A stretch of 64,000 nucleotides of DNA from an uncultured Bacilli bacterium (GTDB taxonomy: Bacteria > Bacillota_I > Bacilli_A > RF39 > UBA660). The first letter of the stretch is position 1; each line of letters starts with the position of its first letter. Shown here piece after piece: positions 32,858 through 64,000 of the stretch. The stretch spans positions 28,950-92,949 of the forward strand of contig CANQON010000001.1 of assembly GCA_947625505.1 (NCBI GenBank). The letters are read 5' to 3'. The position numbers and the translations under genes were made by a program. Below the pieces are notes generated by a model, which saw only the letters and a program-made list of their open reading frames with translations, was not told the DNA's origin and searched no databases.

Positions 32858-32858
32858 A

Positions 32859-45248: not shown

Positions 45249-45285
45249 TCGACATTATACGACAGCAATTTTCGCTATAATTAGC

Positions 45286-46452: not shown

Positions 46453-46494
46453 ATAAATTATCTAAAACGTGATAAAATTATTATAGGTGATGAT

Positions 46495-47988
46495 ATGAAA
46501 CCATTAGTATTATGTATTATGGATGGTGTAGGAGAGAGAAAAGAATTACATGGAAATGCTGTAAAACAAGCTGATACTCCTATTTTAGATATGTTAAAAG
46601 GTAAATATGGATATAGTTTATTAGAAGCAAGTGGAACAAAAGTAGGACTACCAGAAGGCCAAATGGGTAATAGTGAAGTAGGTCATATGAATATTGGTGC
46701 AGGTAGAATTATTTATCAACCACTAGAACTAATCAATAACGCTATTAAAGATCAAACTTTTTACCAAAATGAAGAATTATTAAGAGCTATTAATCATGTA
46801 AAAAGATATAATTCAAAATTACATATTATGGGATTAATTAGTGATGGGGGAGTACACTCACATATTAATCATTTATTAGCTATATTAGATATGTGTAAAT
46901 TAAATAATGTTAGTAATATATATTTACATTTGTGTACAGATGGAAGAGATGTTGATCCTCATAGCGCCTATAGTTATATAGCTCGAGTTGAAGATAAGTT
47001 AAGAGAAGTAGGAGGCATTATTGCAACTATAAGTGGTAGATATTATACTATGGATCGTGATAATAATTATGATCGTTTACAAAAAGGGTATGATGCTATT
47101 GTTTATGGTAATGGATTAAGTAGTAATTCTCCTAAAGAAGCTATTGATATGAGTTATCAAAATGATATTAGTGATGAATTTATTGTACCAACAGTCTTTA
47201 CTGATAAAGGTACAGTAGATGATAATGATGCTTTTATTACTTTTAACTTCCGTAAAGATCGTTTACGTGAATTATTTACAGCTTTAACTAATCCTAATTT
47301 TAATGATATGCCTGTTAAAAAAATTAATAATTTATATGTACTTACGATGTTACCTGTTGTTGAATCTGTAATAGCGCCTCATGCTTTTGATGATCCAAAT
47401 CCTCATCATATATTAGGAGAAGTATTAGCTGATAATGGATTAAAACAATTACGTATTGCGGAAACAGAAAAGTATGCACATGTTACCTTCTTCTTTGATG
47501 GAGGAAAAGAAGTAGATTATCCAAATGAGAAGAAAATACTTATTCCTTCTCCTAAAGTAGCGACTTATGATTTAAAACCTGAAATGAGTGCTTATGAAGT
47601 AACAGAGAATTTAATTAATGAATTACCTTTCGTTGATGTTGTTATTTTAAATTTTGCTAATGGCGATATGGTAGGACATACAGGAGTATTTGATGCTGCT
47701 GTTAAAGCTGTGGAAGTTGTTGATGAATGTATTGGTAAAATATATGATAAAGTTGTTAGCTTAGAAGGTACTTTATTTATTATAGCTGATCATGGTAATA
47801 GTGATTATATGTTAGATGATGATGATAATGTTATAACAAGTCATTCAACTAGTTTAGTACCTTGTATTATTACTAAAGAGGGTATTAAATTAAAAAATGG
47901 TAAATTAGCAGATGTAGCGCCAACAATGTTACGTTTATTAAATATTGAGATACCTAGTGAAATGACAGGAGATGTCTTAATTGGCTAG
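46495..47988 (+). CDS. gpmI: 2,3-bisphosphoglycerate-independent phosphoglycerate mutase
   Basis: Catalytic and metal-binding motifs are all intact: IMDGVG, GNSEVGH, SDGGVHSH, TDGRDVDP, NGDMVGHTG and IIADHGNSD. Confidence 0.95.
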   Translation: MKPLVLCIMDGVGERKELHGNAVKQADTPILDMLKGKYGYSLLEASGTKVGLPEGQMGNSEVGHMNIGAGRIIYQPLELINNAIKDQTFYQNEELLRAINHVKRYNSKLHIMGLISDGGVHSHINHLLAILDMCKLNNVSNIYLHLCTDGRDVDPHSAYSYIARVEDKLREVGGIIATISGRYYTMDRDNNYDRLQKGYDAIVYGNGLSSNSPKEAIDMSYQNDISDEFIVPTVFTDKGTVDDNDAFITFNFRKDRLRELFTALTNPNFNDMPVKKINNLYVLTMLPVVESVIAPHAFDDPNPHHILGEVLADNGLKQLRIAETEKYAHVTFFFDGGKEVDYPNEKKILIPSPKVATYDLKPEMSAYEVTENLINELPFVDVVILNFANGDMVGHTGVFDAAVKAVEVVDECIGKIYDKVVSLEGTLFIIADHGNSDYMLDDDDNVITSHSTSLVPCIITKEGIKLKNGKLADVAPTMLRLLNIEIPSEMTGDVLIG

Positions 47989-48547
47989 TGTTAATTTCTC
48001 ATATGCTAATGCTTTTGAATTATATACGAGAATGTTTTCTAATATCTCAGCTTTTTCTTTAATAGCTTTAGCACTCCTTTTCTTTATTATTATTTTAATG
48101 GTTAATATAGAAAATCGTAATATGCATTTTATCTTTACAGCTTTAAATACGCTTTTAGTTCTTTATATAATTATTGTATATGGAAAAGATATTATTAATA
48201 ATATTGATACTTTCTTTAAGACTAATATATTTAAGAATATTTATTTCTTTTTAATGAATACTGTTATTTCTTTAGTTTTGATTAATCAAAAAATAGTAAG
48301 TTCTAAAACACCAAAAGGTATTAAATATGTAGCTAGTATCTGTTTCTATTTTATTGCTTTAAATGCTATATTAATGCTATTTATGTCTAATGTTTTAGAA
48401 CATATTATCTTATTAGTTTTAGGTAATACTTATCCGATGATTTATTTTGGTAATATTGCGTCTTTCATTATTTATGGATTATTATTACTATATTATTTGT
48501 TGTGTGCTCCAAAGAAACATAAACATCGTTTTGGTAGCCATGTATAA
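47981..48547 (+). CDS. hypothetical polytopic membrane protein, 188 aa
   Basis: 5–6 hydrophobic helices. It overlaps the end of gpmI by 8 nt. Confidence 0.5.
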   Translation: MASVNFSYANAFELYTRMFSNISAFSLIALALLFFIIILMVNIENRNMHFIFTALNTLLVLYIIIVYGKDIINNIDTFFKTNIFKNIYFFLMNTVISLVLINQKIVSSKTPKGIKYVASICFYFIALNAILMLFMSNVLEHIILLVLGNTYPMIYFGNIASFIIYGLLLLYYLLCAPKKHKHRFGSHV

Positions 48548-48569
48548 GGCATCTTTATGATGCTTTTTT
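48547..48569 (+). terminator. intrinsic terminator
   Basis: AGGCATC-tttat-GATGCTT followed by TTTTTT, then TTGACA, a 17-nt spacer and TATACT as promoter for engB. Confidence 0.65.
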
Positions 48570-48622
48570 GACAAAGATATGTATAAATGATATACTTAAT
48601 ACGATTTTAAGGAGGGAGAAAC

Positions 48623-49204
48623 TTGAAAATAAATGATGTAGAACTTGTCATAAGTGCAGTTAGACGTAGTCAATATCCTACTGATGAAAAACCCGAATAT
48701 TTATTAGTAGGAAGATCAAATGTTGGCAAAAGTAGTTTTATTAACACTCTTATTAATCGTAAAAATTATGCACGTACTTCTGCAACTCCAGGTAAAACAC
48801 AAACGATTAACTTTTATTTAGTTAATGATGAGTTTTATTTAGTAGATGCTCCCGGATATGGTTTTGCAGCTTTAAGTAAAGCTAAACAAAAGAAATTTGG
48901 ATTAATGATGGAAGATTATTTACAAAATCGTCCTAATTTAAAACAAGTATTTATGCTAGTAGATTTTCGTCATAAACCTACAAAAGACGATTTAATGATG
49001 TATGATTATTTGAAACATTATAAAATACCTGTAACAATTGTTGCTACTAAAACTGACAAAGTAGGAATTACATCACAACAAAAGCAAAGAACAAGTTTAT
49101 TAAATGATTTAGATTTAGTAGTTGGTGATGACTTTGTAATGTTTTCTAATGTAACTAAATTAGGTAGAGATGAAGTATACCAAAAGATAGAAATGACAAA
49201 ATAG
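48623..49204 (+). CDS. engB: ribosome biogenesis GTPase YihA/EngB (YsxC)
   Basis: TTG start preceded by RBS GGAGGGAG. G1 is GRSNVGKSS, and the TPGKTQ and DAPGYG motifs are present. Confidence 0.9.
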   Translation: MKINDVELVISAVRRSQYPTDEKPEYLLVGRSNVGKSSFINTLINRKNYARTSATPGKTQTINFYLVNDEFYLVDAPGYGFAALSKAKQKKFGLMMEDYLQNRPNLKQVFMLVDFRHKPTKDDLMMYDYLKHYKIPVTIVATKTDKVGITSQQKQRTSLLNDLDLVVGDDFVMFSNVTKLGRDEVYQKIEMTK

Positions 49205-49246
49205 TACATTCTATCTTTTTTTTCATACACTATTATGGGTGAATGT

Positions 49247-49675
49247 ATGAGAGTAGATAATATTGATGACCAAATAATTGTTTATTTAACTAATATTATC
49301 AATGAGGATTTAGAAATAATATGTGAACAAGTAATTAATAAATTAAAAAAATATTATGGAATCGAATTGAAAGGCTTTTATGAAGTAACTATATATTATG
49401 ACTTAAATTATGGTATGGTTTTAGTATTTAATTTAGAAGATTTAGATTTATATTATGATTATAGTAAAGTAGATTTACACATAATAAAAAAGGATAGTAC
49501 TTTTTTATTAGAAATAAAAGATATTTTAGATATAGCTACAGATGAATATTATTTTTATAATGATAAGTATTATCTATCTATTAAAGATATTAATGTTAAT
49601 AATTTAGAATTTGGTAAATTAGTATATGATACAGAAGAAATATTAAAGAAAGCAATTGTATGTAAAATACCATAA
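49247..49675 (+). CDS. hypothetical cytoplasmic acidic protein, about 142 aa
   Basis: RBS GGGTGAA precedes the ATG at 49247. The N-terminus MRVDNIDDQIIVYL… weakly recalls the N-terminal segments of MecA-type adaptors; this is not a confident assignment. Confidence 0.45.
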   Translation: MRVDNIDDQIIVYLTNIINEDLEIICEQVINKLKKYYGIELKGFYEVTIYYDLNYGMVLVFNLEDLDLYYDYSKVDLHIIKKDSTFLLEIKDILDIATDEYYFYNDKYYLSIKDINVNNLEFGKLVYDTEEILKKAIVCKIP

Positions 49676-49697
49676 AAGGTATATCAATTTTGCAAAA

Positions 49698-49710
49698 AGA
49701 GTGATATAAT
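49698..49710 (+). promoter_or_regulatory. extended -10 promoter (TGaTATAAT) at the head of the T7SS-like locus
   Basis: GAGTGATATAATTTTA lies about 30 nt upstream of the RBS AGGGTGA and the ATG at 49737. Confidence 0.45.
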
Positions 49711-49736
49711 TTTAATGAGTAAAATAGGGTGATAAG

Positions 49737-51329
49737 ATGAACGAAAAGAAAACAGTATTATTTTTAATGAATGGATTTGGAACTGAATCCGCTAAATCAT
49801 TTGAAGTATATTCTAAAGAAGTAATGCCTACTTTTGATACACTTATTAACGCTTATCCATTTAAATTATTATTTGCATCAGGTGAATTAATAGGCGCTAA
49901 TAAAAATGAAGTATCAAATTTTAAGACAGGATACTATAACTTTAGTAGTTTTGGACATCCAAGTAAAAAAGAAGATGTTTTAAATAGTAAAATAGCTGCT
50001 AATGAATTTAATAATAATCCTGTTATCAATAATAGTATTGATATAGCTGTTCAAAATAAGTCTAATTTACACATTGTATTTACTTTAGGTGATAAGGTAA
50101 ATAATGAAAGATATGAACATTTAAAACAATATTTAGAATTAGCTGTATCTAAAAACGTTGGTAAGATATATGTACACCTTATTTTAGGTGATAGTAGTAC
50201 AAGAGGATTAAAAATAGGAAGTCAATGCTTAACTAATTTTAAAAATAGAGTTTTACGTTATTATCCTCAAATTATTGTTGCATCACTAGCAGGAAGAATG
50301 TATGTAAAAAATGGATCTGCTAATGATATTGCTAACTATTATCGTATGATGGTTAGTGCCGTAGGAGAAATATGGACAGATTACGAAGCAACTTTAACAA
50401 AAAAATATGAACACGGTATGAATGATGATAATATGATTGCATTCTTAACTATACGTGAAAATATGTTACTTGAAGGTGACAGCATCTTTATGTTTAACTA
50501 TAGTAACAATATAGCAAGACAATTTTTAGATGTTGTTATAAATCCAAAAAAGTATTTTCCAACTAGTAATGTACCAGAAAATATTCATATTAACTCTTTA
50601 TTTACTATTAATAATTTGCCTCAAATACCACGTGCTTTTGAGGATGCTGTACCAGATACTTATTTATTAGATAAAATACCTGATACAAAAAAAGTCTTAA
50701 TTATGGCTACTAAAGAGCGTATACCTTATGTTAGTAAAACATTAAATGGATTTAGGCCTTCATTTAAAAGCAATGTTAGTGTATGGCCAATAGAAGATCG
50801 TAAAAAGAGATTTCAAAGCATTAGTCAGTATTTAGCTGCCTATATTAATCAAGATATATATGATTTAATAATCGTTGATTGTGAATTATATGATGAAGGT
50901 GCTGATGAACGTACGATAGCTAAAGTAATAGATAACATGAAAGAATTAGATAAATGTTTAAATATTACTTATCATCGTGCTATGGATAAGAATTATCGTT
51001 TAATAGCAACTTCATTATATGGAATTAAACAAAGATTTAAGTTAACAGCAACTATGGAATTAGTTGATTTATCACAAAAGACCCCATTCTTACTTGTTGA
51101 TAAAGAAATAAGAAGATTAGATATAGTCTTTAAAAATGAGGGAACATTTATTGATGTAGCTCGTTTAATTGCGATATCTTTTGGTTCTCAAATGTCAAAT
51201 AACTTAATTCAAATAGAAACAGTCGAAGAAAAGAAAAGTAGTAACAAAAAGAAATATATTATATTAGCTATACCAATAGCTATCTTATTAATATTGGTTA
51301 TAGCGTATATTTATATGATGTATTTTTAA
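49737..51329 (+). CDS. catalytically degenerate iPGM (GpmI) paralogue with a C-terminal TM anchor; first gene of the T7SS-like locus
   Basis: It aligns along its length with the window's own GpmI: VLFLMNGFGTE vs VLCIMDGVGER; LLFASGE vs LLEASGT; LHIVFTLGD…KIYVHLILGD vs LHIMGLISDGG…NIYLHLCTDGRD; LIIVDCELYDEGADERTIAKVIDNMKELDKC vs VVILNFANGDMVGHTGVFDAAVKAVEVVDEC. The catalytic Ser motif and the metal ligands DH/GH/DHG are lost. It ends with a hydrophobic helix, KKYIILAIPIAILLILVIAYIYMMYF. Confidence 0.7.
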   Translation: MNEKKTVLFLMNGFGTESAKSFEVYSKEVMPTFDTLINAYPFKLLFASGELIGANKNEVSNFKTGYYNFSSFGHPSKKEDVLNSKIAANEFNNNPVINNSIDIAVQNKSNLHIVFTLGDKVNNERYEHLKQYLELAVSKNVGKIYVHLILGDSSTRGLKIGSQCLTNFKNRVLRYYPQIIVASLAGRMYVKNGSANDIANYYRMMVSAVGEIWTDYEATLTKKYEHGMNDDNMIAFLTIRENMLLEGDSIFMFNYSNNIARQFLDVVINPKKYFPTSNVPENIHINSLFTINNLPQIPRAFEDAVPDTYLLDKIPDTKKVLIMATKERIPYVSKTLNGFRPSFKSNVSVWPIEDRKKRFQSISQYLAAYINQDIYDLIIVDCELYDEGADERTIAKVIDNMKELDKCLNITYHRAMDKNYRLIATSLYGIKQRFKLTATMELVDLSQKTPFLLVDKEIRRLDIVFKNEGTFIDVARLIAISFGSQMSNNLIQIETVEEKKSSNKKKYIILAIPIAILLILVIAYIYMMYF

Positions 51330-51411
51330 TTTTATCTTTTAATTAAAAATGAAATGTGATATCATTATAGAGTAGAAGACTATAAGATAAAGGAATATAG
51401 AGGGTGAGAGT

Positions 51412-51663
51412 ATGAATAAAGTTCTTGTTAATATATACGTACCTCTTATTGAACAAGAATACAATTTATTTATCCCAGTTAATCGTAAGATTGGCTTGGT
51501 GAAAAAAATAATTGGTCATTCAATTGTTGAATTATCTGACGGAAATTATCAAATAGAGGGCTACTTCAACCTTTATAATAAAACGACAAATCGTGTTTAT
51601 GATGATGATACTTATGTAATAAATACCGATATTCGTAATGGTTCTAAACTTATCTTATTGTAG
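51412..51663 (+). CDS. YukD/EsaB-like ubiquitin-fold T7SS protein
   Basis: 83 aa. The YukD/EsaB pattern is present (VLVNIYVP…YNLFIPVN.KIG.V…NTDIRNGSKLILL). RBS GAGGGTGAG precedes the ATG. Confidence 0.7.
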   Translation: MNKVLVNIYVPLIEQEYNLFIPVNRKIGLVKKIIGHSIVELSDGNYQIEGYFNLYNKTTNRVYDDDTYVINTDIRNGSKLILL

Positions 51664-51679
51664 TTAGGAAAGGTGAGTT

Positions 51680-51958
51680 ATGGATAATATTTATATTGAT
51701 TATAATCAAGGAGCTACTTTAGGTCATAAGATTCAAGGTGAATCTACAGACTTAAAAAATCTTCTTGATCGATTAAGGGAAATACAAGAGCAATTAAAAC
51801 CAATGCTTAATGATAGTAATGATGAAAAATATGTAAAAACAATTGATGGTGAATTAAAAGTTATGGAAAAATTAGCTGAGACAATAGATGAAACAGGAAG
51901 CTTCTTAGTTAATGTTTCTAATGCTTATCAAGATGCTGCTGAAAGCATTCATAGTTAG
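51680..51958 (+). CDS. small Esx/WXG100-superfamily-like helical protein lacking the WxG motif
   Basis: 92 aa, predicted helical hairpin, no Trp. It is directly upstream of a bona fide WxG gene within a T7SS locus. RBS AAAGGTGA precedes the ATG. Confidence 0.5.
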   Translation: MDNIYIDYNQGATLGHKIQGESTDLKNLLDRLREIQEQLKPMLNDSNDEKYVKTIDGELKVMEKLAETIDETGSFLVNVSNAYQDAAESIHS

Positions 51959-51966
51959 GTGATATT

Positions 51967-52227
51967 ATGGATAATAAATTAACTTATTCAGAAATAATTT
52001 CATTAGCTGGAAACTTAAAAATGGTTTCTGGACAAATAGAAGATTTACTATCAGTTTTAAAAGAACAAGACTATGCAAGAATTGGTGACGGAGGAGATGT
52101 TTGGACAGGAGATGCCGCATTAATGGCACGCCAAACATTCGATGAATTAGTTACTCGCTTTCCAGAATTTATTAATTCAATAAATGATTACGCTGACTAT
52201 TTAGTTAATGTCGTAGCGTCAAGATAG
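51967..52227 (+). CDS. WXG100 (EsxA/YukE-like) protein
   Basis: 86 aa with a central W-x-G (GGDVWTGDAALMARQTF) between two predicted helices. RBS AGGTGA precedes the ATG. Confidence 0.7.
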   Translation: MDNKLTYSEIISLAGNLKMVSGQIEDLLSVLKEQDYARIGDGGDVWTGDAALMARQTFDELVTRFPEFINSINDYADYLVNVVASR

Positions 52228-52243
52228 TTGTAGGAGGAAATAT

Positions 52244-53191
52244 ATGAATAATGAGGTTGGAGAAAAATTTTTACCAATAGGCTCAGTAGTAATGTTAAAG
52301 GGTGGTACTAAAAGAGCAATGATTACAGGATTCTGTTCTGTAGCCCAAGATGATGCACAAAAAACATATGATTATAGTGGATGTATATATCCTGAAGGAT
52401 ATATATCATCTAATCAAGTATGCTTATTTGATCATGATCAAATTGAAAAAGTATATTTTGTAGGATATGAAGACGAAGAAGAAAAAGCTTTTAAAGAAAA
52501 ATTAAAAACTTTAGTAGAAGCAAATAATAATCAAGCAAATGGAGGAGTAGTACCTAGTACTGTGCCAACAATTCCAGATATGAGTGTTCCTACACAACCA
52601 AGTACGATGGCAGTACCAGGAGTACCAAGTGTACCTGAGATGCCAGGTATGATACCACAAGCACCTGTACCAGATATGGGTATGCCAATGCAACCAAGTA
52701 CACCAGTAATGTCGACAGTACCAAGTGTACCTGAAATGCCAGGCATGATGCCACAAGCACCAGTACCAGATATGGGTATGCCAGTGCAACCAAGTATGCC
52801 AGTAATGCCAACAGCACCAAGTGTGCCTGAAATGCCAGGCATGATGCCACAAGCACCTGTACCAGATATGGGTATGCCAGTGCAACCAAGTACACCAGTA
52901 ATGCCAACAGTACCAAGTGTGCCTGAAATGCCAGGCATGATACCACAAGCACCAGTACCAGATATGGGTATGCCAGTGCAACCAAGTACACCAGTAATGC
53001 CAACAGTACCAAGTGTACCTGAAATGCCAAGTATGATGCCACAAGTACCACAAGCGCCAATGCCTATGGCTCCAGAAGTACCTCCAATGGCAGGACTTGC
53101 TCCATCACCATTTGGAATGCCAACTTCTCAACCACAAGTACCTGGTATGCCAACAGTTCCACCTGTTGATCCAAATAACCAAAATATGTAA
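52244..53191 (+). CDS. DUF4176-like N-terminal domain fused to a Pro/Met-rich 32-aa tandem-repeat tail
   Basis: The N-terminus FLPIGSVVMLKGGTKRAMITG…YDYSGCIYPEGY…VYFVGYEDEEE resembles the T7SS-associated DUF4176. Residues about 128–270 are 4.5 copies of PSVPEMPGM[IM]PQAPVPDMGMP[VM]QPS[TM]PVM[PS]T[VA]. RBS AGGAGG precedes the ATG. Confidence 0.55.
   Translation: MNNEVGEKFLPIGSVVMLKGGTKRAMITGFCSVAQDDAQKTYDYSGCIYPEGYISSNQVCLFDHDQIEKVYFVGYEDEEEKAFKEKLKTLVEANNNQANGGVVPSTVPTIPDMSVPTQPSTMAVPGVPSVPEMPGMIPQAPVPDMGMPMQPSTPVMSTVPSVPEMPGMMPQAPVPDMGMPVQPSMPVMPTAPSVPEMPGMMPQAPVPDMGMPVQPSTPVMPTVPSVPEMPGMIPQAPVPDMGMPVQPSTPVMPTVPSVPEMPSMMPQVPQAPMPMAPEVPPMAGLAPSPFGMPTSQPQVPGMPTVPPVDPNNQNM
52560..53060 (+). 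repeat. in-frame 96-bp tandem repeat of about 4.5 near-identical copies (unit starts 52625, 52721, 52817, 52913, 53009) plus a degenerate leading copy
   Basis: The unit ccaagtgtacctgaaatgccaggcatgatgccacaagcacc[ta]gtaccagatatgggtatgcca[ag]tgcaaccaagta… repeats directly with only a few substitutions per copy. Confidence 0.9.
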
Positions 53192-53194
53192 ACG

Positions 53195-53222
53195 AAAAGT
53201 ATTTTATAAATACTTTTTTTTT
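53195..53222 (+). terminator. intrinsic terminator between the substrate module and essC-1
   Basis: AAAGTATTT-tat-AAATACTTT followed by T10. Confidence 0.75.
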
Positions 53223-53230
53223 GTTATAAT
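53222..53230 (+). promoter_or_regulatory. extended -10 promoter (TGtTATAAT) for essC-1
   Basis: TTGTTATAAT lies 37 nt upstream of the essC-1 ATG. Confidence 0.45.
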
Positions 53231-53266
53231 AGATATAGTATGTTAAAAGAATAAGGATGGGATAGT

Positions 53267-56200
53267 ATGTTAGTATCATTAATTAAAAGTACGAGAATCA
53301 ATACGTTAACTTTACCTAATAGAATTATAGGTAACTATTGGGTTACAGATTATGATGATAATAATAATGAACAAAATTTAATTAGTATTGAAGCTCAAGA
53401 TGGGGCATGGCGTCTTATAAGTAATGATGATATTGCTGTTGTAGAAAATAATGCTGAAAGAGATTATGTCTATTTAAAAGAATATGCTTTTTACTTATTA
53501 AAATTTAAGCAAACTAATACATACTTACTATTATATTGTTCTCCTGTCTATGATAAAACTTTTAAAAGATATTATATTGGTTCTAATCAAGAGATTACTA
53601 TTGGTAATAATAATGCTAATGCCATATACTATGATAATTCGGGTGTTGATAATGTACATGCTAAATTAGCTTACTATTCAGGTAGTTTTATTGTTACTGA
53701 TAATAATAGTCGTTTAGGAGTATATGTTAATAAAATACGTGTTCAAAAACAACAAAAGTTAGAAAATGGGGATATTATATTTATTGCGGGTTTAAAAATA
53801 ATTGTTTTAATTGAAGATAATGTTCCAATTATTATTGTTAATAATCCTGATGGATTAGTTAGATGTCAATCTAATGTTTTAAAAGCTCAAGAGTTAAAAA
53901 CAATAGAAAATCCTAGTGAGTTATTAAATACAGTTGATGATCCTGATGATGTTTTAGATGTGGATTTATATAAAGAAGATGATTATTTTCATAAAAAACC
54001 ACGTTTTAAGTCTAATGTTAAGACATTAGATATTCAAATAGATGCTCCTCCTAGTGCTGAAAAGAGTGAAGAGATGCCTGTTATGTTAACATTAGGGCCT
54101 ATGGTAACAATGGGAGTATCATCAGCTGTTATGAGTATTACAGCTGTTACTAATGTTTTAGCGCATAATAGTACTTGGGGACAAGCTATGCCTGCTATTG
54201 CGATAGGTACAGCTATGTTAGGTAGTTTAATATTATGGCCTTCTTTAACAAGACGTTATGAAACAAAAAGAAAACAACGTAAAGAAGAAATAAGACAATT
54301 AAAGTATAGTCAATATATTGAAGGTAAACGTCAAACAATAGTTGAAACTATTCGTACTCAAAGACAAATTTTAGCTGAAAATAATTTATCTTTAGAAGAG
54401 TGTCAACAAGTTATTTTAAAGCGTAAAATGAATTTATGGGAACGTAAATATGGTGATGAAGATTTCTTAGTTGTTAACTTAGGATCTGGTGTATTACCTA
54501 TGGATATTAATATTCAATATCCTGAAGAACATTTTTCTTTAGAAGATGATAATTTAAGAGAAATGGTTATGCGTTTAGGTAGTGAACCTAAAAACCTAGC
54601 TGATGTTCCTTTAACTATTTCTTTATATGAAAAAAATATTTTAGCGCTTATTGGTACTAAAAAATTAAATAAATCATATATTGATCGTTTAATTTTACAA
54701 TTAGTAACATTCCATAGTTATGATGAACTAAAGATTGTTGTCTTTACTTCTAAAAATAATGAAGAGAGTTGGGATTATATAAAGATTCTTCCTCATTGTT
54801 GGAGCAATGATAAATCAATACGTTTCTTTGGTACAACAAATGATGAGATAAAAGAAGTATGTTATCATTTAGATCGTGAATTATCTTCACGTAGAGATGA
54901 AGAAGAACAAGTAAAAAGTAATTCACCTTATTATTTAATTATTACAGACTCTATTAAAACAATACGTAGTTTTGATGTTATTAAAGATATATTAGGATTA
55001 CAAGAAAATTATGGCTTTGGATTATTAATTATGAATGATCGCGTATCTAATTTACCTACAGAGTGTAAGGCTTTTATTAATGTATCAGAAAAGAATTCTG
55101 ACTTATTTGAGAATGTCTTAAATACTAATCATTTAAACTTCCGTATTGATTTTGATACGAATATTAATATGTATGAATGTGCGAAAGTATTAGCTAATAT
55201 GCCTATTGAAATAGGTGATGATAGTGAAGCTTTACCTAATAAGTATGGTTTCTTAGAAATGTATAATGTAGGTAAAGTAGAACAGTTAAACTCACTTAAT
55301 AGATGGCAAAAGAATAATCCTATTTTAACCTTACAAGCTCAAGTTGGAGTTGGTAAGGGAGGAGAAAAAATAAATCTTGATTTACATGAAAAATTTCATG
55401 GACCACATGGATTAGTAGCAGGATCTACAGGTAGTGGTAAATCAGAATTTATTATTACTTATATCTTATCAATGGCTGTTAACTATCATCCTAATGAAGT
55501 TCAATTTATTTTAATAGATTATAAAGGAGGAGGTCTAGCTGGAGCTTTTGAAAATAAAGAAACAGGTATTAGACTACCTCATTTAGCAGGGACAATTACT
55601 AACCTTGATACTAGTGAGATGAATCGTGCTTTAGCATCTATTGAATCAGAATTAAAAAGAAGACAAAGAATTTTTAATGAAGCTAGAGAGTTATCTGGTG
55701 AAAGTACGATTGATATATATAAATATCAAAAATTATATCGTAATGGAGTAGTTAAAGAACCTATAGCGCACTTATTTATCATTAGTGATGAGTTTGCTGA
55801 ATTAAAGAGTCAACAACCTGAATTCATGCAACAACTTATCAGTACAGCGCGTATAGGAAGATCTTTAGGTGTTCACCTTATTTTAGCAACGCAGAAACCT
55901 GCTGGTATTGTTGATAATCAAATATGGAGTAATACGCGTTTTAGAGTATGCTTACGTGTTCAAGAAAAAAGTGATAGTAATGATGTTATTAAATGCCCAG
56001 ATGCTGCTTTAATTAAACAGACAGGTCGTTTCTATTTACAAGTAGGATATAATGAAATATTTGAATTAGGACAATCAGCATGGTGTGGAGGTAAATATTA
56101 TCCTGCTGAAAAATTAAAGAAAACAGTTGATACTTCAATTGACTTTGTCGATAATGTAGGCTTTGTTATTAAGTCTGCTGAAAAAGATAAACATAAAGAT

Positions 56201-57901
56201 AGTGATAAAGCTCAAGGTGAAGAATTAAATAATGTTGTTGCATATTTATCTAATATAGCTGCAACCGAAGGAATTAGTGTTAAACAATTATGGTTAGATC
56301 GTATTCCTGATTATATTACAGTAGCTGCTTTAATGCGTAAATATGATATTAAGCCAAGTAAGAATTATATCGCGCCTATTATTGGTGAATATGATGATCC
56401 ATCTAATCAAAGACAAGATATTTTACGTATTCCTTTTGTAAATGATGGAAATGGTATTGTTTATGGAGTTAGTGGAAGTGGTAAAGAAAATTTAATTAGT
56501 TCAATGATTTTCTCTTCAATGTACCTATATACTCCAGAAGAATTAAATTATTATGTTCTAGATTTTGGATCTGAAACATTAAAAGTATTTGATAGTTGTC
56601 CATTAGTAGGAGATGTTTTACTTGCTAATGATAAAGATAAAATAGCTAATTTATTTAAGTTATTATCTAATAAAGTAGAAGAACGTAAAAAGTTATTTGC
56701 TCCTTATGGAGGAAGCTATGAATACTATATGGAAAATAGTGATAACAAATTGCCTGTTATTGTTGTAATAATAAATAACTTTGAAGTATATGATGATAGT
56801 TATCTTACATATGAAGAGTTGTTATTATCACTTACAAGAGAAGGATCTAAATATGGTATTTACTTCTTCTTATCTGTTAATACACCTAATGGTGTAAGAT
56901 TCAAAATGCGTCAAAACTTTAATCAAGAATTCGTTTTACAACAAAATAATGAAAATGATTATACAGCTATTTTGGGTAATGTTAAAAAGAATTATCCATC
57001 TAAGATTAAGGGTAGGGGTATTATTAAGAAAAATGATATTATATATGAATTCCAAACAGCATACCCTGCACCTAAAAATAAAGAAAGTTATACCTTTATT
57101 AAGGAACAATGCGAGACATGCGCTAAAGAATTTGATAAAGTGGCAGAACATGTTCCAACCTTACCTGATCATATAGCTTTCAAAGATGTAAAACACGAAT
57201 TAGGTAAGAGTGACGCTATGATAATTGGTTATAATAAAGAGACATTAGATATTGTAAAATATGACTTTACACATAAACCAGTTACTCTTATTACTGCTCA
57301 AGACATTAGTATGGCTAGTCACTTTGTTAGACCATTAATTAAACAATTTGCATCTTTAAATAAATGTGATGTCTTAGTTATTGATGCCGAAGAATTACAA
57401 TTAACAATGGGTATTGGTAACCTTAAATATGTTGATGTTAACTTTGATGATAATTTTACTAAATTAGAAAAATTTATTAATGATTATTATCAACAATATC
57501 TTGATAGTGATTATGATAGACACATATTTGAAAATGAAAGACCTGCAACAATATTTATTTGTGGCTTAGAAAGCTTTAGAAATAAATTAGGTATTGAAAA
57601 CAAAAATAAATTTGGCCAACTTTTTGAACATGCTAAAGATTTAGGTATCGTTAACTTTGTTATAGTTGAAAGTGCTGATAAACTTAAGAAATTTGAGACA
57701 GAAAGTTGGTATAAATCAGCTGTTAATAATACAACAGGTATTTGGGTAGGAAATGGTGTTTCTGAACAATTTATCTTGAAGTTAACTAAAGTAACAAAAG
57801 AAATAAGAGAAGATATTCCAGATAACTTCTGTTATGTAATAGCTAGAGGTAAACCAATTCTTACACAATTTATTGAAAGTTTTGATATTTTAAATGATTA
57901 G
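53267..57901 (+). CDS. essC: T7SS FtsK/SpoIIIE-family ATPase EssC/YukB, paralogue 1 (1544 aa)
   Basis: N-terminal FHA-like domains are followed by 2 TM helices (about aa 270–330) and three ATPase domains. D1 Walker A is GPHGLVAGSTGSGKSEFIITYILSMAVNYHP, with …ILATQKP…GRFYLQVGY. D2 is YGVSGSGKENL. D3 is degenerate. Confidence 0.9.
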   Translation: MLVSLIKSTRINTLTLPNRIIGNYWVTDYDDNNNEQNLISIEAQDGAWRLISNDDIAVVENNAERDYVYLKEYAFYLLKFKQTNTYLLLYCSPVYDKTFKRYYIGSNQEITIGNNNANAIYYDNSGVDNVHAKLAYYSGSFIVTDNNSRLGVYVNKIRVQKQQKLENGDIIFIAGLKIIVLIEDNVPIIIVNNPDGLVRCQSNVLKAQELKTIENPSELLNTVDDPDDVLDVDLYKEDDYFHKKPRFKSNVKTLDIQIDAPPSAEKSEEMPVMLTLGPMVTMGVSSAVMSITAVTNVLAHNSTWGQAMPAIAIGTAMLGSLILWPSLTRRYETKRKQRKEEIRQLKYSQYIEGKRQTIVETIRTQRQILAENNLSLEECQQVILKRKMNLWERKYGDEDFLVVNLGSGVLPMDINIQYPEEHFSLEDDNLREMVMRLGSEPKNLADVPLTISLYEKNILALIGTKKLNKSYIDRLILQLVTFHSYDELKIVVFTSKNNEESWDYIKILPHCWSNDKSIRFFGTTNDEIKEVCYHLDRELSSRRDEEEQVKSNSPYYLIITDSIKTIRSFDVIKDILGLQENYGFGLLIMNDRVSNLPTECKAFINVSEKNSDLFENVLNTNHLNFRIDFDTNINMYECAKVLANMPIEIGDDSEALPNKYGFLEMYNVGKVEQLNSLNRWQKNNPILTLQAQVGVGKGGEKINLDLHEKFHGPHGLVAGSTGSGKSEFIITYILSMAVNYHPNEVQFILIDYKGGGLAGAFENKETGIRLPHLAGTITNLDTSEMNRALASIESELKRRQRIFNEARELSGESTIDIYKYQKLYRNGVVKEPIAHLFIISDEFAELKSQQPEFMQQLISTARIGRSLGVHLILATQKPAGIVDNQIWSNTRFRVCLRVQEKSDSNDVIKCPDAALIKQTGRFYLQVGYNEIFELGQSAWCGGKYYPAEKLKKTVDTSIDFVDNVGFVIKSAEKDKHKDSDKAQGEELNNVVAYLSNIAATEGISVKQLWLDRIPDYITVAALMRKYDIKPSKNYIAPIIGEYDDPSNQRQDILRIPFVNDGNGIVYGVSGSGKENLISSMIFSSMYLYTPEELNYYVLDFGSETLKVFDSCPLVGDVLLANDKDKIANLFKLLSNKVEERKKLFAPYGGSYEYYMENSDNKLPVIVVIINNFEVYDDSYLTYEELLLSLTREGSKYGIYFFLSVNTPNGVRFKMRQNFNQEFVLQQNNENDYTAILGNVKKNYPSKIKGRGIIKKNDIIYEFQTAYPAPKNKESYTFIKEQCETCAKEFDKVAEHVPTLPDHIAFKDVKHELGKSDAMIIGYNKETLDIVKYDFTHKPVTLITAQDISMASHFVRPLIKQFASLNKCDVLVIDAEELQLTMGIGNLKYVDVNFDDNFTKLEKFINDYYQQYLDSDYDRHIFENERPATIFICGLESFRNKLGIENKNKFGQLFEHAKDLGIVNFVIVESADKLKKFETESWYKSAVNNTTGIWVGNGVSEQFILKLTKVTKEIREDIPDNFCYVIARGKPILTQFIESFDILND

Positions 57902-57904
57902 AAA

Positions 57905-57931
57905 AAAGATAATTATATTATCTTTTTTTAT
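57905..57931 (+). terminator. intrinsic terminator between essC-1 and essC-2
   Basis: AAGATAAT-tat-ATTATCTT followed by T8. Confidence 0.75.
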
Positions 57932-57962
57932 TGGTTAAATAGTGTATTTTTGCTTTATATTA

Positions 57963-57971
57963 TGGTATAAT
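57963..57971 (+). promoter_or_regulatory. extended -10 promoter (TGgTATAAT) for essC-2
   Basis: TATGGTATAAT lies about 30 nt upstream of the essC-2 start. Confidence 0.45.
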
Positions 57972-57999
57972 ATTTGATGAGAATAGGGGTCGTGTGATT

Positions 58000-60900
58000 A
58001 TGCTGATATCAATAATGGATAACGACAAATTGACGAAGTTTAATTTACCTGAAAAAGTAGAAGAAACTTTCCTTATTAAGTATCGCCCTGTCAATTCTAA
58101 TATTGACAAGGATATTAATGTGGAATCATCTAATGGTAAATGGTATTTAAAAAGTAATGGTAGTATTGATGTTGCTATCGATAATAAAATTATTGATAAA
58201 GCAGTACTAGAAGAATATAATCAGTATTTTCTATCAGTAAGTGGACAAAAAATATACTCTATCCTATATTGTTCTCCTTCAAATGAAGAAAAACAAAAAT
58301 ATAAATTTAATACGGATCATATAACAATAGGTAAGGATACTAATTCTACTATTTGTTATCAAAATAATTTAATGGCACCTACACATGCAACAATATATTG
58401 TCAAAATAATACTTGGTTTATCAAAAGTAGTGATTTAGATTGGGCTCGTGTTTATGTTAATAATGTACGTGAATATAATGCTAAGTTACATGTAGGGGAT
58501 GTTATTTTTATAAATGGGTTAAAGATTATTTGGATGAATAGTTTTATCGTAATTAATAATCCTAAAGGAGAAGCTAATATATCTAATATTTTGACACCTT
58601 ATGCTGAAGAAAATGTTGATAATACTAAATATTCTGAAATATCAGAGGATGAAGAGAATGTTCCTTTATATGATGAAAAAGAATATTTTAGTCATGTTCC
58701 TAGACTTCGTACAGTATTTGAAACAGATACTGTAGAGATTGATGAACCTCCAATGTCTCAAAATGTTGAAGATCAACCTTTTATTGCAACAATTGGTACT
58801 TCACTTATGATGCTTGCTTCAACATTAGTTATGGGCTCATCTATATTAAATAGTATTAGTAATGGAACTGCTAATATCATAATGATTATTCCACAAGCAG
58901 CTATGATTATTGCAATGATTATTGCAACGATTGTTCTTCCTAAATATCTTCGTAAATATCAACGTTCTAAAAGAGACGAAAAAGAAGCTTTAAGGCAAAA
59001 AAAGTATACCAATTATTTAAATGATAAAGAAGCTAAAATCAAATCTTTATTAAAAGCAAAACAACAAGTTTTAAATGAAAACTTTCCTATGCTAAATGAA
59101 GCTATTGTTACTGTAAATAATCGTACTAGAAGACTATGGGAAAAAGAAATAAAGGATGATGATTTCTTAACAATACGTTTAGGCTTAGGTAATATGCCAT
59201 CTAATATTACGATTAATGCTGCTAAAGAAAGATTTACCCTAGATGATGATAATTTAAGAGCTCGTGTTCATGCAATTGTAGATCACTCTAAAATACTTGA
59301 AAATGTTCCTGTTACTTTTTCCTTTGCTGAAAAGAATATTTCAGCTATTATAAGTGAAGGACATTATAATAAGAAATATATTGATGGCTTAATCCTTCAG
59401 ATTTTAGCATATCATAGTCCTGCTGATTTAAAGATTGTCTTACTTACTAATTATGCTAATACGAATAGATGGAGTTATTTAAAGTTTGCTCCACATTGTT
59501 GGACTGATGACCGAGAGATGCGTTTTTATGCTGATGATATGGAAGAAATGAAGAATATATCATCATATCTTGAAAACGAATTAAATAAAAGAAAAGCATT
59601 ATTAGAAAATAATGATAATAAAGATATTAAAAGACAAGATGGATTTAAAAACTTTTCACCATATTACTTAATCATTACTGATGACTATCGTAATACTAAG
59701 AATGTTCAGTTTTTATCAACATTCTTACACGAAGAAGAAAACTATGGTTTTTCTTTATTACTAGTTGATGATTCTATGCGTAATATGCCTAATGAATGTG
59801 ATACATTTATTGATGTTTTAGATAAAAATAGTTGTATCTTTCAAAAGGAATTAAGTAGTCAAACACAAACGAATTTTATTAATGAGTATGTTGATTCTGT
59901 TAATATGGATGATATAGTCTTTAAGTTAGCTAATATTCCTGTTGCATCTAGAGAAATGATGAGTTTATTACCTAAATCTATTTCTTTCTTAGAAATGTAT
60001 AATGTAGGTAATATCAAACAATTAAATATTTTAAATAGATGGAAGACAAGTAATCCTGTTATTACACTTGAAGTTCCTGTTGGAGTACATCCTAGTGGAG
60101 AATTATTTAAATTAAATCTACATGAAAAATTTCATGGACCACATGGTTTAATTGCAGGATCTACAGGTAGTGGTAAATCCGAATTTATTATTACTTACAT
60201 CTTATCTATGGCTATTAACTATCATCCTGATGATGTTCAATTTGTATTAATAGACTATAAAGGTGGAGGCTTAGCAGGAGCATTTGAAAACCGTGAAAGT
60301 GGAGTTCAAATACCTCATTTAGCAGGTACGATAACTAATTTAGATACTAATGAAATGAATCGTACTTTAGTATCTATTCAAAGTGAGTTAAAACGTCGTC
60401 AAGCTAAATTTAATGAAGCTCGTGATCGCTTAGATGAAAGTACGATTGATATTTATAAATATCAGAGATATTATCATGAAGGATTACTAGATGAACCTAT
60501 TGCACATTTATTTATTATATGTGATGAGTTTGCGGAATTAAAGAGTCAACAACCTGAATTCATGCAACAACTTATTAGTACATCACGTATAGGTCGTTCT
60601 TTAGGAGTTCACCTTATTTTAGCAACGCAGAAACCTACGGGAGTTGTTAATGATCAAATATGGTCTAACTCAAGATTTAAAGTATGTTTAAAAGTACAGA
60701 GTCGTAGTGATAGTATGGAAATGTTAAAGCGTCCTGAAGCGGCATCAATTAAAGATACAGGACGTTTCTATTTACAAGTAGGCTATGATGAATTATTTGA
60801 ATTAGGTCAATCAGCATGGTGTGGTGCTAAATATATTCCAACTGAACGTATAAAGAAAAAACAAGATGATTCAATAACTTTTGTAGATAATACTGGATAT

Positions 60901-62595
60901 GTAATTAAAAATGTTAATGATATTCATCGTAAAGAAGATTCTGTATCAAAAGGGGAACAATTAACAAATATTGTTAAATACTTATCAGAGTTAGCTGAAA
61001 AAGAGAATTATCATCCACATCGTTTATGGTTAAATAAAATACCTGATGTTATTTATGTAGATGAGTTAAAGAAAAAATATAATTATAAACCAAAACGTTT
61101 TGTTATGGATTCTATAATAGGGGAGTATGATGATCCATCTAATCAAAAACAAGATGTTGTTAAATTAAACTTATCTAGTGATGGCAATGCTTTAATATAT
61201 GGCTTACCTACTACAGGTAAAGAAAACTTATTAGCAACCATTATCTATTCAATGGTAACAGATCATAGTGTAGATGAATTAAATATGTATATTATGGATT
61301 TTGGAGCTGAAACATTACGTATGTTTCAAAATATTCCTCATATAGGTGATTTAGCTTACATTGAAGATGAAGAAAAAATAATTAAATTATTAGAATTAAT
61401 CGATAATGAAATAGAATTACGTAAGAATTTATTTGTTGACTATGCAGGTAGTTATATTGATTATTGTACGAATAGTGGAAATACTTTACCTACAATTGTT
61501 ATAATGATTAATGGTTATGAAAACTTCCAAGAAAATTTTGGTAAATATGAAGATAGTCTTTATACACTTATTCGTGAAAGTAATAAATATGGTATTTATT
61601 TTATAGTAGCGACATCTGTTAATAGTTGTATTCGTAGTCGTTTACTTCAAAACTTTAATAATCGTTTATCTATGCAACTATCTGATCCAATGGATTATCG
61701 TATTTTACTTAATGCTCCAAAAGATTTAAATCCTGCTCATAATTATGGACGTGGTATTGTTCGTATTAATGATACAGGTTTTGAATTCCAATCAGCATTT
61801 ATAACAGATAAAAATAGAATAGGTGACGCTATTAAGATATTAAGTGCACGTTTAAGTAATTATTATAAACGTCGTGCTCCTAAGATACCAATTTTACCTA
61901 AAAAGGTAATTGATAGTAGTTTACCAATACCTAAGTCATTAGATCAGGTACCTATTGGTGTATTAAAGAAGAATGTAGAACCTGCTTATTATGATTTTGA
62001 ACGTAGTAAATATACAACAATTGGTACTAATATCTTAGATGATAAATTGCCATTCTTTAATGCTTTATTACGTAAATTAAGTGCTATACCAAATTTAAGA
62101 ATTAAAGTAATTGATGCTTATCAAGCATATCAACCACAGATACCGAATGTTACTGTTTATAGTAAAGATTTTGATCAAGTTATTAACATGATGTATCAAG
62201 AACTTGATATTGAAGAAAAACAAAATTATAAAACATTATATTTTGTAGTTGGTATTGGACAGTTAAAAGTAAGATTAAGTAAAGAAGCTCAAACTAAATA
62301 TATGACTATTTTAGGATCATTAAAGAATTTTATTAATAGTTATTTTATCGCTATTGATAGTATTCAAGCTTTACGAAGTCTTGAGTTAGATAGTTGGTAT
62401 CGTAATAATGTCTCTAGATCTGATGGTATATGGTTAGGTGATGGCTTTGGTAGTCAAAGTATTATTAAAGTTTCTAACTTTACTTTAGAAGATCGTAAAG
62501 TAAGCTATCCAGAAATTGCTTATATTGCTAATAAGGGAAAATATGAATTTGTTAAATATATGATTGAAGAGGAGACTGATCAAGATGAGGAATAA
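58000..62595 (+). CDS. essC: T7SS FtsK/SpoIIIE-family ATPase EssC/YukB, paralogue 2 (about 1532 aa)
   Basis: Same architecture as paralogue 1. D1 is nearly identical ([52 protein letters not shown]), while the FHA region, the D2 P-loop (GLPTTGKEN) and the C-terminal D3 have diverged. RBS TAGGGGT precedes the ATG at 58000, which aligns with the paralogue-1 N-terminus (MLVSLI vs MLISIM). Confidence 0.9.
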   Translation: [1531 protein letters not shown]

Positions 62596-62839
62596 AGTAT
62601 TAGTCGAAATTACTGTTCCCGAAATAGATCAAACATATAATGCTTTTTTACCTATTAATAAAAAAGTAGGGAATATACTAGTCTTGATTACTAAAGCTAT
62701 AAGTGATATGAGTAATAATAATTATCAAGTATCAACTACTAATGCTTTATATAATCGTATAACAGGTGAAAAATATAACACAGATGATTTAATACGTGAG
62801 ACAAATATTAGAAATGGTACTAAATTAGTATTATTATAG
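62585..62839 (+). CDS. second YukD/EsaB-like ubiquitin-fold protein, translationally coupled to essC-2
   Basis: It is a paralogue of 51412–51663 (VLVEITVPEIDQTYNAFLPINKKVG…ETNIRNGTKLVLL). Its start overlaps the essC-2 stop by 11 nt. RBS GAGGAG lies inside essC-2. Confidence 0.65.
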   Translation: MRNKVLVEITVPEIDQTYNAFLPINKKVGNILVLITKAISDMSNNNYQVSTTNALYNRITGEKYNTDDLIRETNIRNGTKLVLL

Positions 62840-62893
62840 AAGAATTATATAATTCTTCTTTTTTTACAAAAAAAATAAGGTAAAACCTTATTT
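62838..62893. terminator. convergent pair of intrinsic terminators
   Basis: + strand: GAAGAATTAT/ATAATTCTTC palindrome followed by T7. – strand: AATAAGGT-aaa-ACCTTATT with T8 on the complementary strand. Confidence 0.8.
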
Positions 62894-63199
62894 TATGATT
62901 TGTATTCTTTCTTTAATTACGGTTGCATCAATTTTATCAAAAAGATCACAAACTTCTAAAGAAGTATTATTCATTTCAACAATGCTAGTATTAACATAGT
63001 CTTTAATAAGCACACAATTACCTTTAACTTTACGTATTGCCTCAGGCAAAGCATTTAAATAAGTTCGGTAACTAAATCCTGATGGAATATCTAATCCTTC
63101 AGCTATATTAATAGCTGAAATTAATTCATCGATACCATCATCAATAACAGGCATAAAATAAGATTTTAAGCCATTCGTATTAATAAGTAATTTACTCAT
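62888..63199 (-). CDS. small helical protein (about 103 aa) in the minus-strand Esx-like cluster
   Basis: It overlaps the upstream gene by 8 nt (coupled). It is acidic and predicted alpha-helical. No WxG. Confidence 0.5.
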   Translation of the reverse strand: MSKLLINTNGLKSYFMPVIDDGIDELISAINIAEGLDIPSGFSYRTYLNALPEAIRKVKGNCVLIKDYVNTSIVEMNNTSLEVCDLFDKIDATVIKERIQIIK

Positions 63200-63506
63200 T
63201 ATTTATTTCTACCTTTCGCATAGTCGTTTCAATTTTCTCAGCTGTTTCTTGAAATAGCATACCGAATCTTTTTAAGTTATTATATAAGTTTATATATATT
63301 TCTTTTTCTTGCGTGACTTGAGCGATATATCTATCTGCATCATCACCTTGCCAACCATCTTCACGAGTATTTAAATTACTAATATAAGTAAAAATTGTTT
63401 CAATTATTTCTTCATAGTCATCTGCTAAAGCTACGATATCTTGACCACAAGATTTTATTTTTTTAGTATCACAATCAATACTAGTCATTATTTCTTGTTC
63501 CTCCAT
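63192..63506 (-). CDS. WXG100-like protein (104 aa) with a central WxG
   Basis: …TREDGWQGDDADRYIAQV… is a central W-Q-G between two helical segments, the WXG100 (EsxA/Lap-like) hallmark. Confidence 0.55.
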   Translation of the reverse strand: MEEQEIMTSIDCDTKKIKSCGQDIVALADDYEEIIETIFTYISNLNTREDGWQGDDADRYIAQVTQEKEIYINLYNNLKRFGMLFQETAEKIETTMRKVEINNE

Positions 63507-63520
63507 ATAATAGTAGCATC

Positions 63521-63835
63521 CTATATTTTATCAGCATTTAAATCCAATTCATGAAGACGTGTTATTTCAATATTTAGTTGAGCAATACGACTATTTATCG
63601 TTGGTATTATTTTAGTAATTAGAATATTGTAGATATTATTAATAGAATCAACACTATCTTTTAATTTACTATTATCAGCAATATCACTATCAATACGGTA
63701 GTATTTACCTAATTGATTAGTGGCACTTTCAATATTCGTTGTACTAGTATTTAAGTGTGAACAAATACTTTTTATATTATCCATTAATTTATAATATCTA
63801 TTACGTTCATATTCTAATTCTGATATTAAAGACAT
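63521..63835 (-). CDS. small helical protein (104 aa), Esx/Lap-like helper candidate
   Basis: RBS GGAGG is 6 nt upstream of the ATG. Coiled-coil-like composition and the same size class as its neighbours. Confidence 0.5.
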   Translation of the reverse strand: MSLISELEYERNRYYKLMDNIKSICSHLNTSTTNIESATNQLGKYYRIDSDIADNSKLKDSVDSINNIYNILITKIIPTINSRIAQLNIEITRLHELDLNADKI

Positions 63836-63847
63836 TGTAAGCCTCCG

Positions 63848-64000
63848 CTACATTTTACCTTCAAATGAGAAGCTAGTAGCATCTCCACGTACATCTGTAT
63901 CGACAGCTTCACTTTTAGCACTATATTCTTCTTTAGCTGTTTTTAAAGCTTGAATAGTAGCATCAATACGATGAATAACACCAGTTTTAACTGTTTCACA
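63848..64000 (-). CDS. 3' end of a minus-strand gene truncated by the window edge
   Basis: The reverse-complement reads …CETVKTGVIHRIDATIQALKTAKEEYSAKSEAVDTDVRGDATSFSFEGKM followed by TAG. The next gene begins 12 nt downstream. Confidence 0.4.
   Translation of the reverse strand, partial: CETVKTGVIHRIDATIQALKTAKEEYSAKSEAVDTDVRGDATSFSFEGKM

Follow-up and report, generated by a model that had tools for sequence, protein, structure and literature searches.

A conserved, toxin-free array of six small genes beside the gene for a type VII secretion ATPase of an uncultured Bacilli bacterium

The stretch of DNA analysed here (the window: 64,000 nt, contig CANQON010000001.1 of assembly GCA_947625505.1, positions 28,950 to 92,949, forward strand) is from an uncultured Bacilli bacterium. 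It ends within a string of small minus-strand genes that faces EssC2, a gene for the ATPase of a type VII secretion system (T7SS). The window holds the distal half (the 3' part of C, then D, E and F) of a six-gene operon, A-F. We consider it fairly probable that the proteins A-F serve the adjacent type VII ATPase, most likely EssC2, as its dedicated small substrates or co-substrates, and that they do not target toxins. Gene sets of this kind are known (small helical T7SS substrates). The arrangement, conserved and free of toxin genes, is somewhat unusual.

Three minus-strand open reading frames (ORFs) and the 3' end of a fourth gene were present at the window end, and the middle one contained GWQGDD, all as described in the first-pass annotation. 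F, the last gene of the operon, was located at 62888..63199 (103 amino acids, aa), E at 63192..63506 (104 aa) and D at 63521..63835 (104 aa), with an 8-nt overlap between E and F in the ORF list for 60000..64000. C contributed 50 codons and a stop (63848..64000, minus strand; TAG at 63848-63850), and its translation ended in ...DATSFSFEGKM. GGAGG was found 6 nt 5' of the start ATG of D. E probably starts at Met7 (63488), which would give 98 aa, because all 150 of its listed distant homologues aligned from about Met7 (most exactly at position 7), its orthologues began at the Met7 equivalent, and GGAGG precedes the Met7 codon. D, E and F are real genes, because orthologues of the ORFs were present in at least eight independent loci and their ratios of nonsynonymous to synonymous substitution rates (dN/dS), against three orthologous loci, were 0.24-0.62 (F, 0.27-0.44). 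The range for all six genes was 0.06-0.62, and all six are under purifying selection.

The sequence beyond the window was obtained from six long, near-identical ENA metagenome contigs (L001-L006), retrieved by exact-protein look-up of D. Window position 64000 corresponded to about position 9836 of L001. On this contig the truncated gene, C, was complete at 106 aa (9668..9988), and two more small genes preceded it, B (9342..9650, 102 aa) and A (9007..9330, 107 aa). This extension gave the six-gene operon, with tandem genes A-B-C-D-E-F of 107, 102, 106, 104, 104 and 103 aa. About 55 nt upstream of A was a strong sigma-70-like site, TTGACT-18-TATAAT with a TG extension (11/12 matches). The truncated gene had been proposed as the associated effector, and an LXG polymorphic toxin was considered for it. 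Neither held, as the gene encodes only the 106-aa C and comes after B, A and the promoter. No LXG, toxin or immunity gene was found in the sequence extended past 64000.

Close relatives of the cluster, at 38-73% protein identity, were found in L007 (partial), L008 (GCA_947624915.1), L011 and L013 (partial). Distant loci (L014-L020) were reached through matches of the exhaustive profile search described below. In the close relatives, the cluster was convergent with EssC and a small ORF. In L008 it directly abutted spoIVA, and the single adjacent EssC was an orthologue of EssC2 (76% identity). The human-gut metagenome loci L015/L016 carried EssC, an 84-aa ORF, a 584-aa lipoprotein-like protein, six small genes on the same strand (111, 109, 159, 101, 95 and 103 aa) and a 325-aa DUF4176 protein. 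In L018/L019, six genes in A-F order came after a 567-aa homologue of the lipoprotein-like protein, and the contigs stopped short of any EssC. L017 contained EssC and an 84-aa ORF, then genes of 109, 97, 107, 106, 99 and 86+ aa; L014 contained three genes in the order C-D-E. In L020 (5924..8528), genes of 82, 103, 100 and 90 aa, read from the spoIVA side and convergent with EssC, represented D-E-F preceded by the 82-aa gene, and one 118-aa gene separated them from spoIVA.

The cluster thus adjoined EssC in every locus that extended far enough (the window, L001-L008, L011, L015-L017 and L020), and the array appears to be an ancient, conserved set. Pattern scans for E, F and C gave no relatives in GTDB genome contigs (two scans) or JGI metagenome contigs (two scans); the close lineage is missing from both collections.

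Genes in these loci were assigned to A-F unambiguously by profile, at 34-106 bits against 12 bits or less for shuffled decoys; E-values were calculated with the database size set nominally to 10^6 sequences. Weaker scores were obtained for A (27 bits) and F (12 bits) of L017, for C (25 bits) and F (22 bits) of L015, and for the A-like 82-aa gene of L020 (19 bits). F of L017 was assigned by position and its P-x-x-F loop, and the truncated C of that locus, which gave no profile match, by eye. The order was A-B-C-D-E-F in L015 and L018, and D-E-F-A-B-C in L017. This suggested that the array behaves as two three-gene modules, each with one canonical WxG protein (B or E). The earlier idea of 'additional substrate pairs' therefore came close to the best reading, but the L017 order makes the unit look like two triplets and not pairs. 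E and F overlapped by 8, 4, 1, 1 and 8 nt in five loci, and were 10-11 nt apart in the distant loci. An origin by duplication or triplication (A with D, B with E, C with F) was not supported, as hhalign gave only a local B-E match around the WxG (52% probability).

E is a divergent WXG100 (ESAT-6/EsxA-like) protein, as judged by transitive homology and by profile matches to solved EsxA and EsxB structures; its proposed kinship with WXG100 proteins was upheld. Its sequence includes REDGWQGDDADRY, the GWQGDD core of which would place W-Q-G at the hairpin turn. Searched singly, E was aligned over its full length with PF06013 (E 0.018; 15.7 bits against a cut-off of 27.3) and with TIGR03930 (E 0.0022; 18.2 bits against 44.85). 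Both scores lie below the curated WXG100 thresholds, which speaks against membership by curated score. The exhaustive profile search, of 1.84 billion representatives, gave 339 relatives of E at E <= 1e-3, nearly all of 90-100 aa, and PF06013 was matched by 24 of 73 aligned members of the E family (best 5.7e-8).

The E-family profile matched solved structures at 3.9e-6 to 1e-3. The matches were EsxA of G. thermodenitrificans (3zbh, 3.9e-6), EsxB of B. anthracis (4j42), EsxA of S. agalactiae, EsxA of S. aureus (2vs0) and CFP-10 of M. tuberculosis (3fav_A); the alignments to 3zbh, 2vs0 and 4j42 were full-length. We infer a helix-turn-helix hairpin fold for E from its alignment to the solved EsxA/EsxB structures. 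All four close orthologues of E have W-[QIKH]-G at residue 46; the L020 orthologue has W-N-N instead.

A and B were also related to this family. All four A orthologues matched NF035934 (ESAT6_2) over the full length (5e-7 to 2e-9), and that of L008 passed the Pfam WXG100 gathering score (29.1 against 27.3 bits), the only passer among the six families. B has an invariant AW-x-G-x-D-x-D-x-Y with W-x-G at residues 48-49, and its distant orthologues matched PF06013 at about 1.7e-4. On these matches, both A and B are classed as WXG100-like. For C, which has an invariant central Y-K-G-F, there were weak WXG100 hints only (the L013 orthologue matched TIGR03930 at E 0.0027). Single-sequence searches of the PDB with E and A returned noise only, and shallow-profile searches of the PDB for A, B, C, D and F returned nothing or compositional coiled-coil matches only.

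D and F are different. D, an orphan without WxG, was modelled by AlphaFold2 as a long antiparallel helix-turn-helix hairpin with high confidence (predicted local distance difference test, pLDDT, 91.2; predicted template-modelling score 0.74; helices 3-44 and 55-103). No orthologue of D matched any family in Pfam or NCBIfam, and D orthologues scored 34-78 bits against their own profile. F is acidic, without a transmembrane segment, and has an invariant central [IL]P-x-x-F loop. Its orthologues were 51-69% identical, distant ones scored 59-62 bits against the F profile, and F gave no Pfam, NCBIfam, PHROG or PDB sequence match. D and F as divergent WXG100 proteins were rejected, the hhalign profile-profile probability being 7-9%. 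By these comparisons D and F make up two unannotated T7SS-associated families.

Some properties were common to the six proteins. All were hydrophilic without a transmembrane-like segment, and their isoelectric points were 4.3-5.6 across orthologues, except for one F orthologue with a value of 7.8. One invariant central aromatic-x-Gly, at residues 42-49, was present in each of A, B, C and E. At this position A carries F-K-G and C carries Y-K-G; D and F have none.

The ATPase next to the array, EssC2 (57994..62595, plus strand), is an FHA and FtsK/SpoIIIE type VII ATPase, its Pfam domains having been read on orthologous genes. The 3' end of essC2 overlaps a small ORF in the EsaB/YukD position (62564..62839, plus strand; 91 aa, 84-91 aa across loci), which was next to EssC in all related loci and was 51-52% identical to its L015 and L017 counterparts. 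It is named by position only, because profile searches of Pfam and PDB gave no match to the ubiquitin-like fold of YukD/EsaB.

The window has a second copy of the ATPase gene, EssC1 (53267..57901). The two proteins were 42% identical overall and 27% identical over the last 300 aa. The C-terminal region of EssC has been linked to substrate specificity (PMC10801868). The array-adjacent EssCs of L007, L008, L015 and L017 were closer to EssC2 than to EssC1, also in the C-terminal 300 aa (L008, 76% overall). As the two copies are more diverged in this region than overall and the array-adjacent EssCs are mostly EssC2-like, EssC2 would most likely be the cognate translocase of the array.

Several points weigh against the reading of A-F as dedicated EssC2 substrates. 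The assignment to EssC2 is not universal, because L020 pairs D-E-F with an ATPase whose C-terminus is EssC1-like (43% against 26% identity). D and F had no detectable homology to WXG100 proteins and no match to a WXG100 hidden Markov model (HMM) at E <= 1. Hairpin folds are generic, and the Foldseek search of the PDB with D gave generic hairpins only, none significant (E >= 0.19); these included EsxA:EsxB (4lws), CFP-10 (3fav_C) and LapA3/LapA4 (8gmh). The model of F was of low confidence (pLDDT 54; four helices), and its Foldseek matches were meaningless. The structure check thus bore out a helical hairpin for D, but a hairpin was not supported for F.

No C-terminal export motif of the YxxxD/E, FxxxD or HxxxD/E type was conserved across orthologues. 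H-x-x-D-E was found in B only (three of four orthologues), the F-x-F-x-G-K tail of C was lost in L013, and FxxxD/E was present in the F orthologues of the window, L007 and P0005 and missing from those of L008 and L011. The oligomer composition of A-F, their recognition by EssC2 and their secretion are proposed from sequence. An effector may also be encoded elsewhere in the genome, the negative results for effectors covering the loci on the contigs. In sum, the first-pass description of T7SS-linked small helical proteins stood in the adjacency to EssC, in E as a WXG100 protein and in the hairpin of D, but not in a hairpin for F or a sequence relation of D and F to WXG100.

The main rival explanation sees A-F as targeting factors or chaperones of the Lap type, which either stay in the cytoplasm or are exported with their cargo. 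They would attach to the helical targeting domain of effectors from elsewhere in the genome (one or several) and bring them to EssC. We consider this unlikely. A Lap gene typically sits directly upstream of the effector gene that it serves. In none of about eight independent lineages did the cluster adjoin an LXG, toxin or immunity gene, and the proposal that these genes are helpers of an adjacent T7SS effector (LXG or Lap modules) was not sustained. The array was conserved with the core ATPase, and was not variable like accessory toxin islands. HMM searches of Pfam and NCBIfam for the families that the first-pass annotation had named (DUF3130/TIGR04197, DUF3958, DUF5082 and DUF5344) gave no match for any of the six proteins at E <= 1. 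These families correspond to Lap1 (the SACOL2603 family), Lap2, Lap4 and Lap3, respectively. The conserved motifs of Lap1 are DxxTxxxGN and FxxxD (PMC9600955). The first was not seen on reading the A-F sequences, and the second was not conserved in them.

On the other side, the small non-WxG helical partners D and F resemble Lap1-4 and S. aureus EsxB/C/D (PMC9600955, PMC10801868, PMC10653861), and LapA3/LapA4 were among the non-significant matches of D. The DUF4176 protein, of an LXG-toxin chaperone family, belongs to the same loci. Extra small WXG100-related genes at variant (T7SSc-j) loci, e.g. TseA2 and TsgA1/A2, are read as Laps near candidate substrates by Garrett, Higginson and Palmer 2024 (PMC11217815). 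The Lap explanation is nevertheless weakened because the HMM and motif tests failed and no lineage had an adjacent effector.

Among the closest known systems are the WXG100 proteins EsxA and EsxB (PF06013/TIGR03930). As in that family, the proteins here are acidic and roughly 100 aa long, a central WxG falls at the predicted turn of a helix-turn-helix, and the genes adjoin that of an FtsK/SpoIIIE-type EssC. Unlike that family, E falls short of the curated cut-offs, and D, F and possibly C are without WxG and detectable homology. Whereas T7SSb has a single esxA and mycobacteria an esxB-esxA pair, the present operon holds six distinct genes.

The array is like the LXG-Lap-Lap complexes (Klein et al. 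2022, 2024; 8gmh; PMC10801868) in that non-WxG hairpin partners are encoded in tandem and three small hairpin units would form one elongated bundle exported by EssC. It is unlike them in having no LXG toxin or toxin domain, no Lap HMM match and no Lap1 motifs, and in that its triplets are kept together with the core machinery and are not tied to variable toxin cassettes. Several distinct small helical proteins, only some of them bona fide WXG100 proteins, are also a feature of S. aureus EsxB/EsxC/EsxD (Yang et al. 2023, PMC10653861). Those serve the adjacent EsaD nuclease, with its chaperone and immunity genes, whereas no such cargo was found here.

The T7SSc-j variants (PMC11217815), found in Bacillota and among them Clostridia, combine an EssC with FHA, WXG100 genes and a small YukD-like ORF, as do the present loci. 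A difference is that the subtype-defining accessories were not seen in the window, and no six-gene, two-triplet array occurs in the subtype descriptions consulted in that paper. The term DUF4176 is absent from it. We do not claim a new T7SS subtype, because EssC1 and EssC2 were set against T7SSc-j by gene content and not by tree placement.

These missing genes bear on a further explanation, that A-F are non-secreted structural or regulatory T7SS subunits that replace EssA, EssB or EsaA or gate EssC. We consider it improbable. EssA, EssB and EsaA were not seen around either EssC (window 44900..62839), nor was a T7SSc-j accessory of the kinase, PPM phosphatase, DUF6382-FHA, TadZ-AAA+ or EspG-like kind seen near either of them. 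The six genes were, in addition, as conserved in presence and order as core genes. All six proteins, however, are soluble and acidic without transmembrane segments, and three belong to the WXG100 family, the characterised members of which are exported. They were also more diverged than EssC between the window and L008 (54-73% against 76% identity), which is typical of substrates.

That A-F are phage, regulatory or sporulation proteins beside the T7SS by chance was largely refuted, and we regard it as very improbable. The cluster abuts spoIVA in L008 and is one gene away from it in L020, and D and F are without family assignment. Against this, the EssC linkage persisted in lineages without an adjacent spoIVA, and A, B and E are WXG100 relatives. 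A phage origin was rejected, as a PHROG search gave nothing meaningful. The surroundings are core chromosome, the rest of the window including the genes for PolC, DnaE, SepF, DivIVA, IleRS and trigger factor.

Under the favoured reading, that of dedicated substrates, each protein would fold as a helix-turn-helix hairpin: D by its model, E by its homology to EsxA/EsxB and the others presumably. In the cytoplasm the hairpins would join into hetero-oligomeric helical bundles, probably with the three-protein modules A-B-C and D-E-F as units, each around one WxG protein (B or E). These bundles are proposed because of the gene order, the permutation of the modules in one locus and the close linkage between E and F. 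EssC would recognise the bundles through its divergent C-terminal ATPase region and export them as folded complexes, as is established for Esx dimers and LXG-Lap-Lap tripartite complexes. Their role would be EsxA-like (secretion competence, structural or membrane-active) and not toxin targeting, a proposal derived from the absence of a toxin domain in the cluster.

The two convergent operons are separated by a 48-nt intergenic gap, between the plus-strand operon and F. A shared bidirectional terminator had been proposed there. RNA folding of both strands did not agree with a single bidirectional terminator, and gave instead two separate back-to-back hairpins, one for each strand. The plus-strand hairpin (62838-62859, with a U-run to 62865; z = -4.11) is a probable terminator of the EssC2/small-ORF operon. 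The minus-strand hairpin (62872-62894, with U8 to 62864; z = -5.05) is a probable intrinsic terminator of the six-gene operon, and overlaps the stop codon of F. The fold energy was -15.7 kcal/mol on each strand, and both folds were far better than those of shuffles. A consensus terminator scan picked up neither hairpin, because the stems are A+T-rich.

A second T7SS mini-module was found upstream of EssC1 (51412..52227, plus strand). Two of its ORFs, those shorter than 90 aa, are easy to miss. It starts with another ORF in the YukD/EsaB position (51412..51663, 83 aa), homologous to the small ORF after EssC2. Two Esx-like genes follow on the same strand: one at 51680..51958 (92 aa, without Trp; PF06013 E 2.8e-3; related to the E family at an hhalign probability of 87%), and one at 51967..52227 (86 aa, with 'DVWTGDAA', a W-T-G; PF06013 E 7e-4). 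At 52244..53191 (plus strand) is a gene for a DUF4176 protein of 315 aa, with the DUF4176 domain at residues 9-83 (E 8e-29). About 230 aa of Pro/Met-rich repeats of about 32 aa (VPSVPEMPGMMPQAPVPDMGMPVQPS...) come after this N-terminal domain. The 325-aa protein encoded after the array in L015/L016 is a homologue of it. DUF4176 proteins are normally small chaperones for LXG toxins.

The tandem FHA-EssC genes are flanked by iPGM paralogues, a GTPase and a histidine kinase. One iPGM-like gene is canonical (46495..47988). The other (49737..51329), which lies directly before the first T7SS module, has diverged strongly (iPGM_N E 1e-17) and encodes a C-terminal hydrophobic tail.

Upstream of A on L001 (6891..8851), there are two divergently transcribed genes for membrane proteins of 256 and 391 aa. 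The 256-aa protein has an N-terminal transmembrane segment, and a homologue in the same position in L013. The 391-aa protein gave a weak glucosaminidase match (PF01832, E 2.7e-4), and may be a cell-wall hydrolase. Both genes are absent from L008, where spoIVA abuts A. Further out on L001 are asnB, an ATP-grasp gene, alr, a sigma-factor-like gene and spoIVA. The 567-584 aa protein encoded directly before the array in other loci (L015 4584..6338; L018 4558..6261) has an N-terminal hydrophobic segment ending in LLSGC, which is lipobox-like, and a HEIEH motif. It gave no Pfam match and no homologue in the window.

The GC content is 28%, and the host is an uncultured low-GC spore-former known from metagenomes only. 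Scans for tRNA genes and for Rfam families at gathering score were negative over the whole 64 kb. The scanned sequence includes the part 5' of the IleRS gene (32844..35954), in which one could expect a T-box leader.

A more far-reaching proposal, which we put forward tentatively and consider rather unlikely, is that A-B-C and D-E-F are toxin-less tripartite helical 'shafts', each centred on a WxG protein. In a compact, unclassified T7SS of uncultured gut Bacillota, they would be the main cargo or else form a conduit or needle-like part outside the cell. That T7SS would be made of an FHA-EssC, a small protein in the YukD/EsaB position and a long DUF4176 protein, without EssA, EssB and EsaA; D and F would be new families of hairpin partners.

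Small WXG100-like partners are now viewed as key to cargo recognition by type VII systems, and the evidence on them is almost all from toxin-linked Lap and Esx proteins of a few cultured pathogens. Current HMM-based annotation leaves loci such as these as strings of hypothetical proteins. E adds one clear new member to WXG100, as far as homology can tell, and D and F enlarge the T7SS-associated repertoire by two unannotated families. A conserved, toxin-free set of two triplets beside EssC would be a clean test case for what the bundles do alone, and for how they are selected by the divergent C-terminus of EssC.

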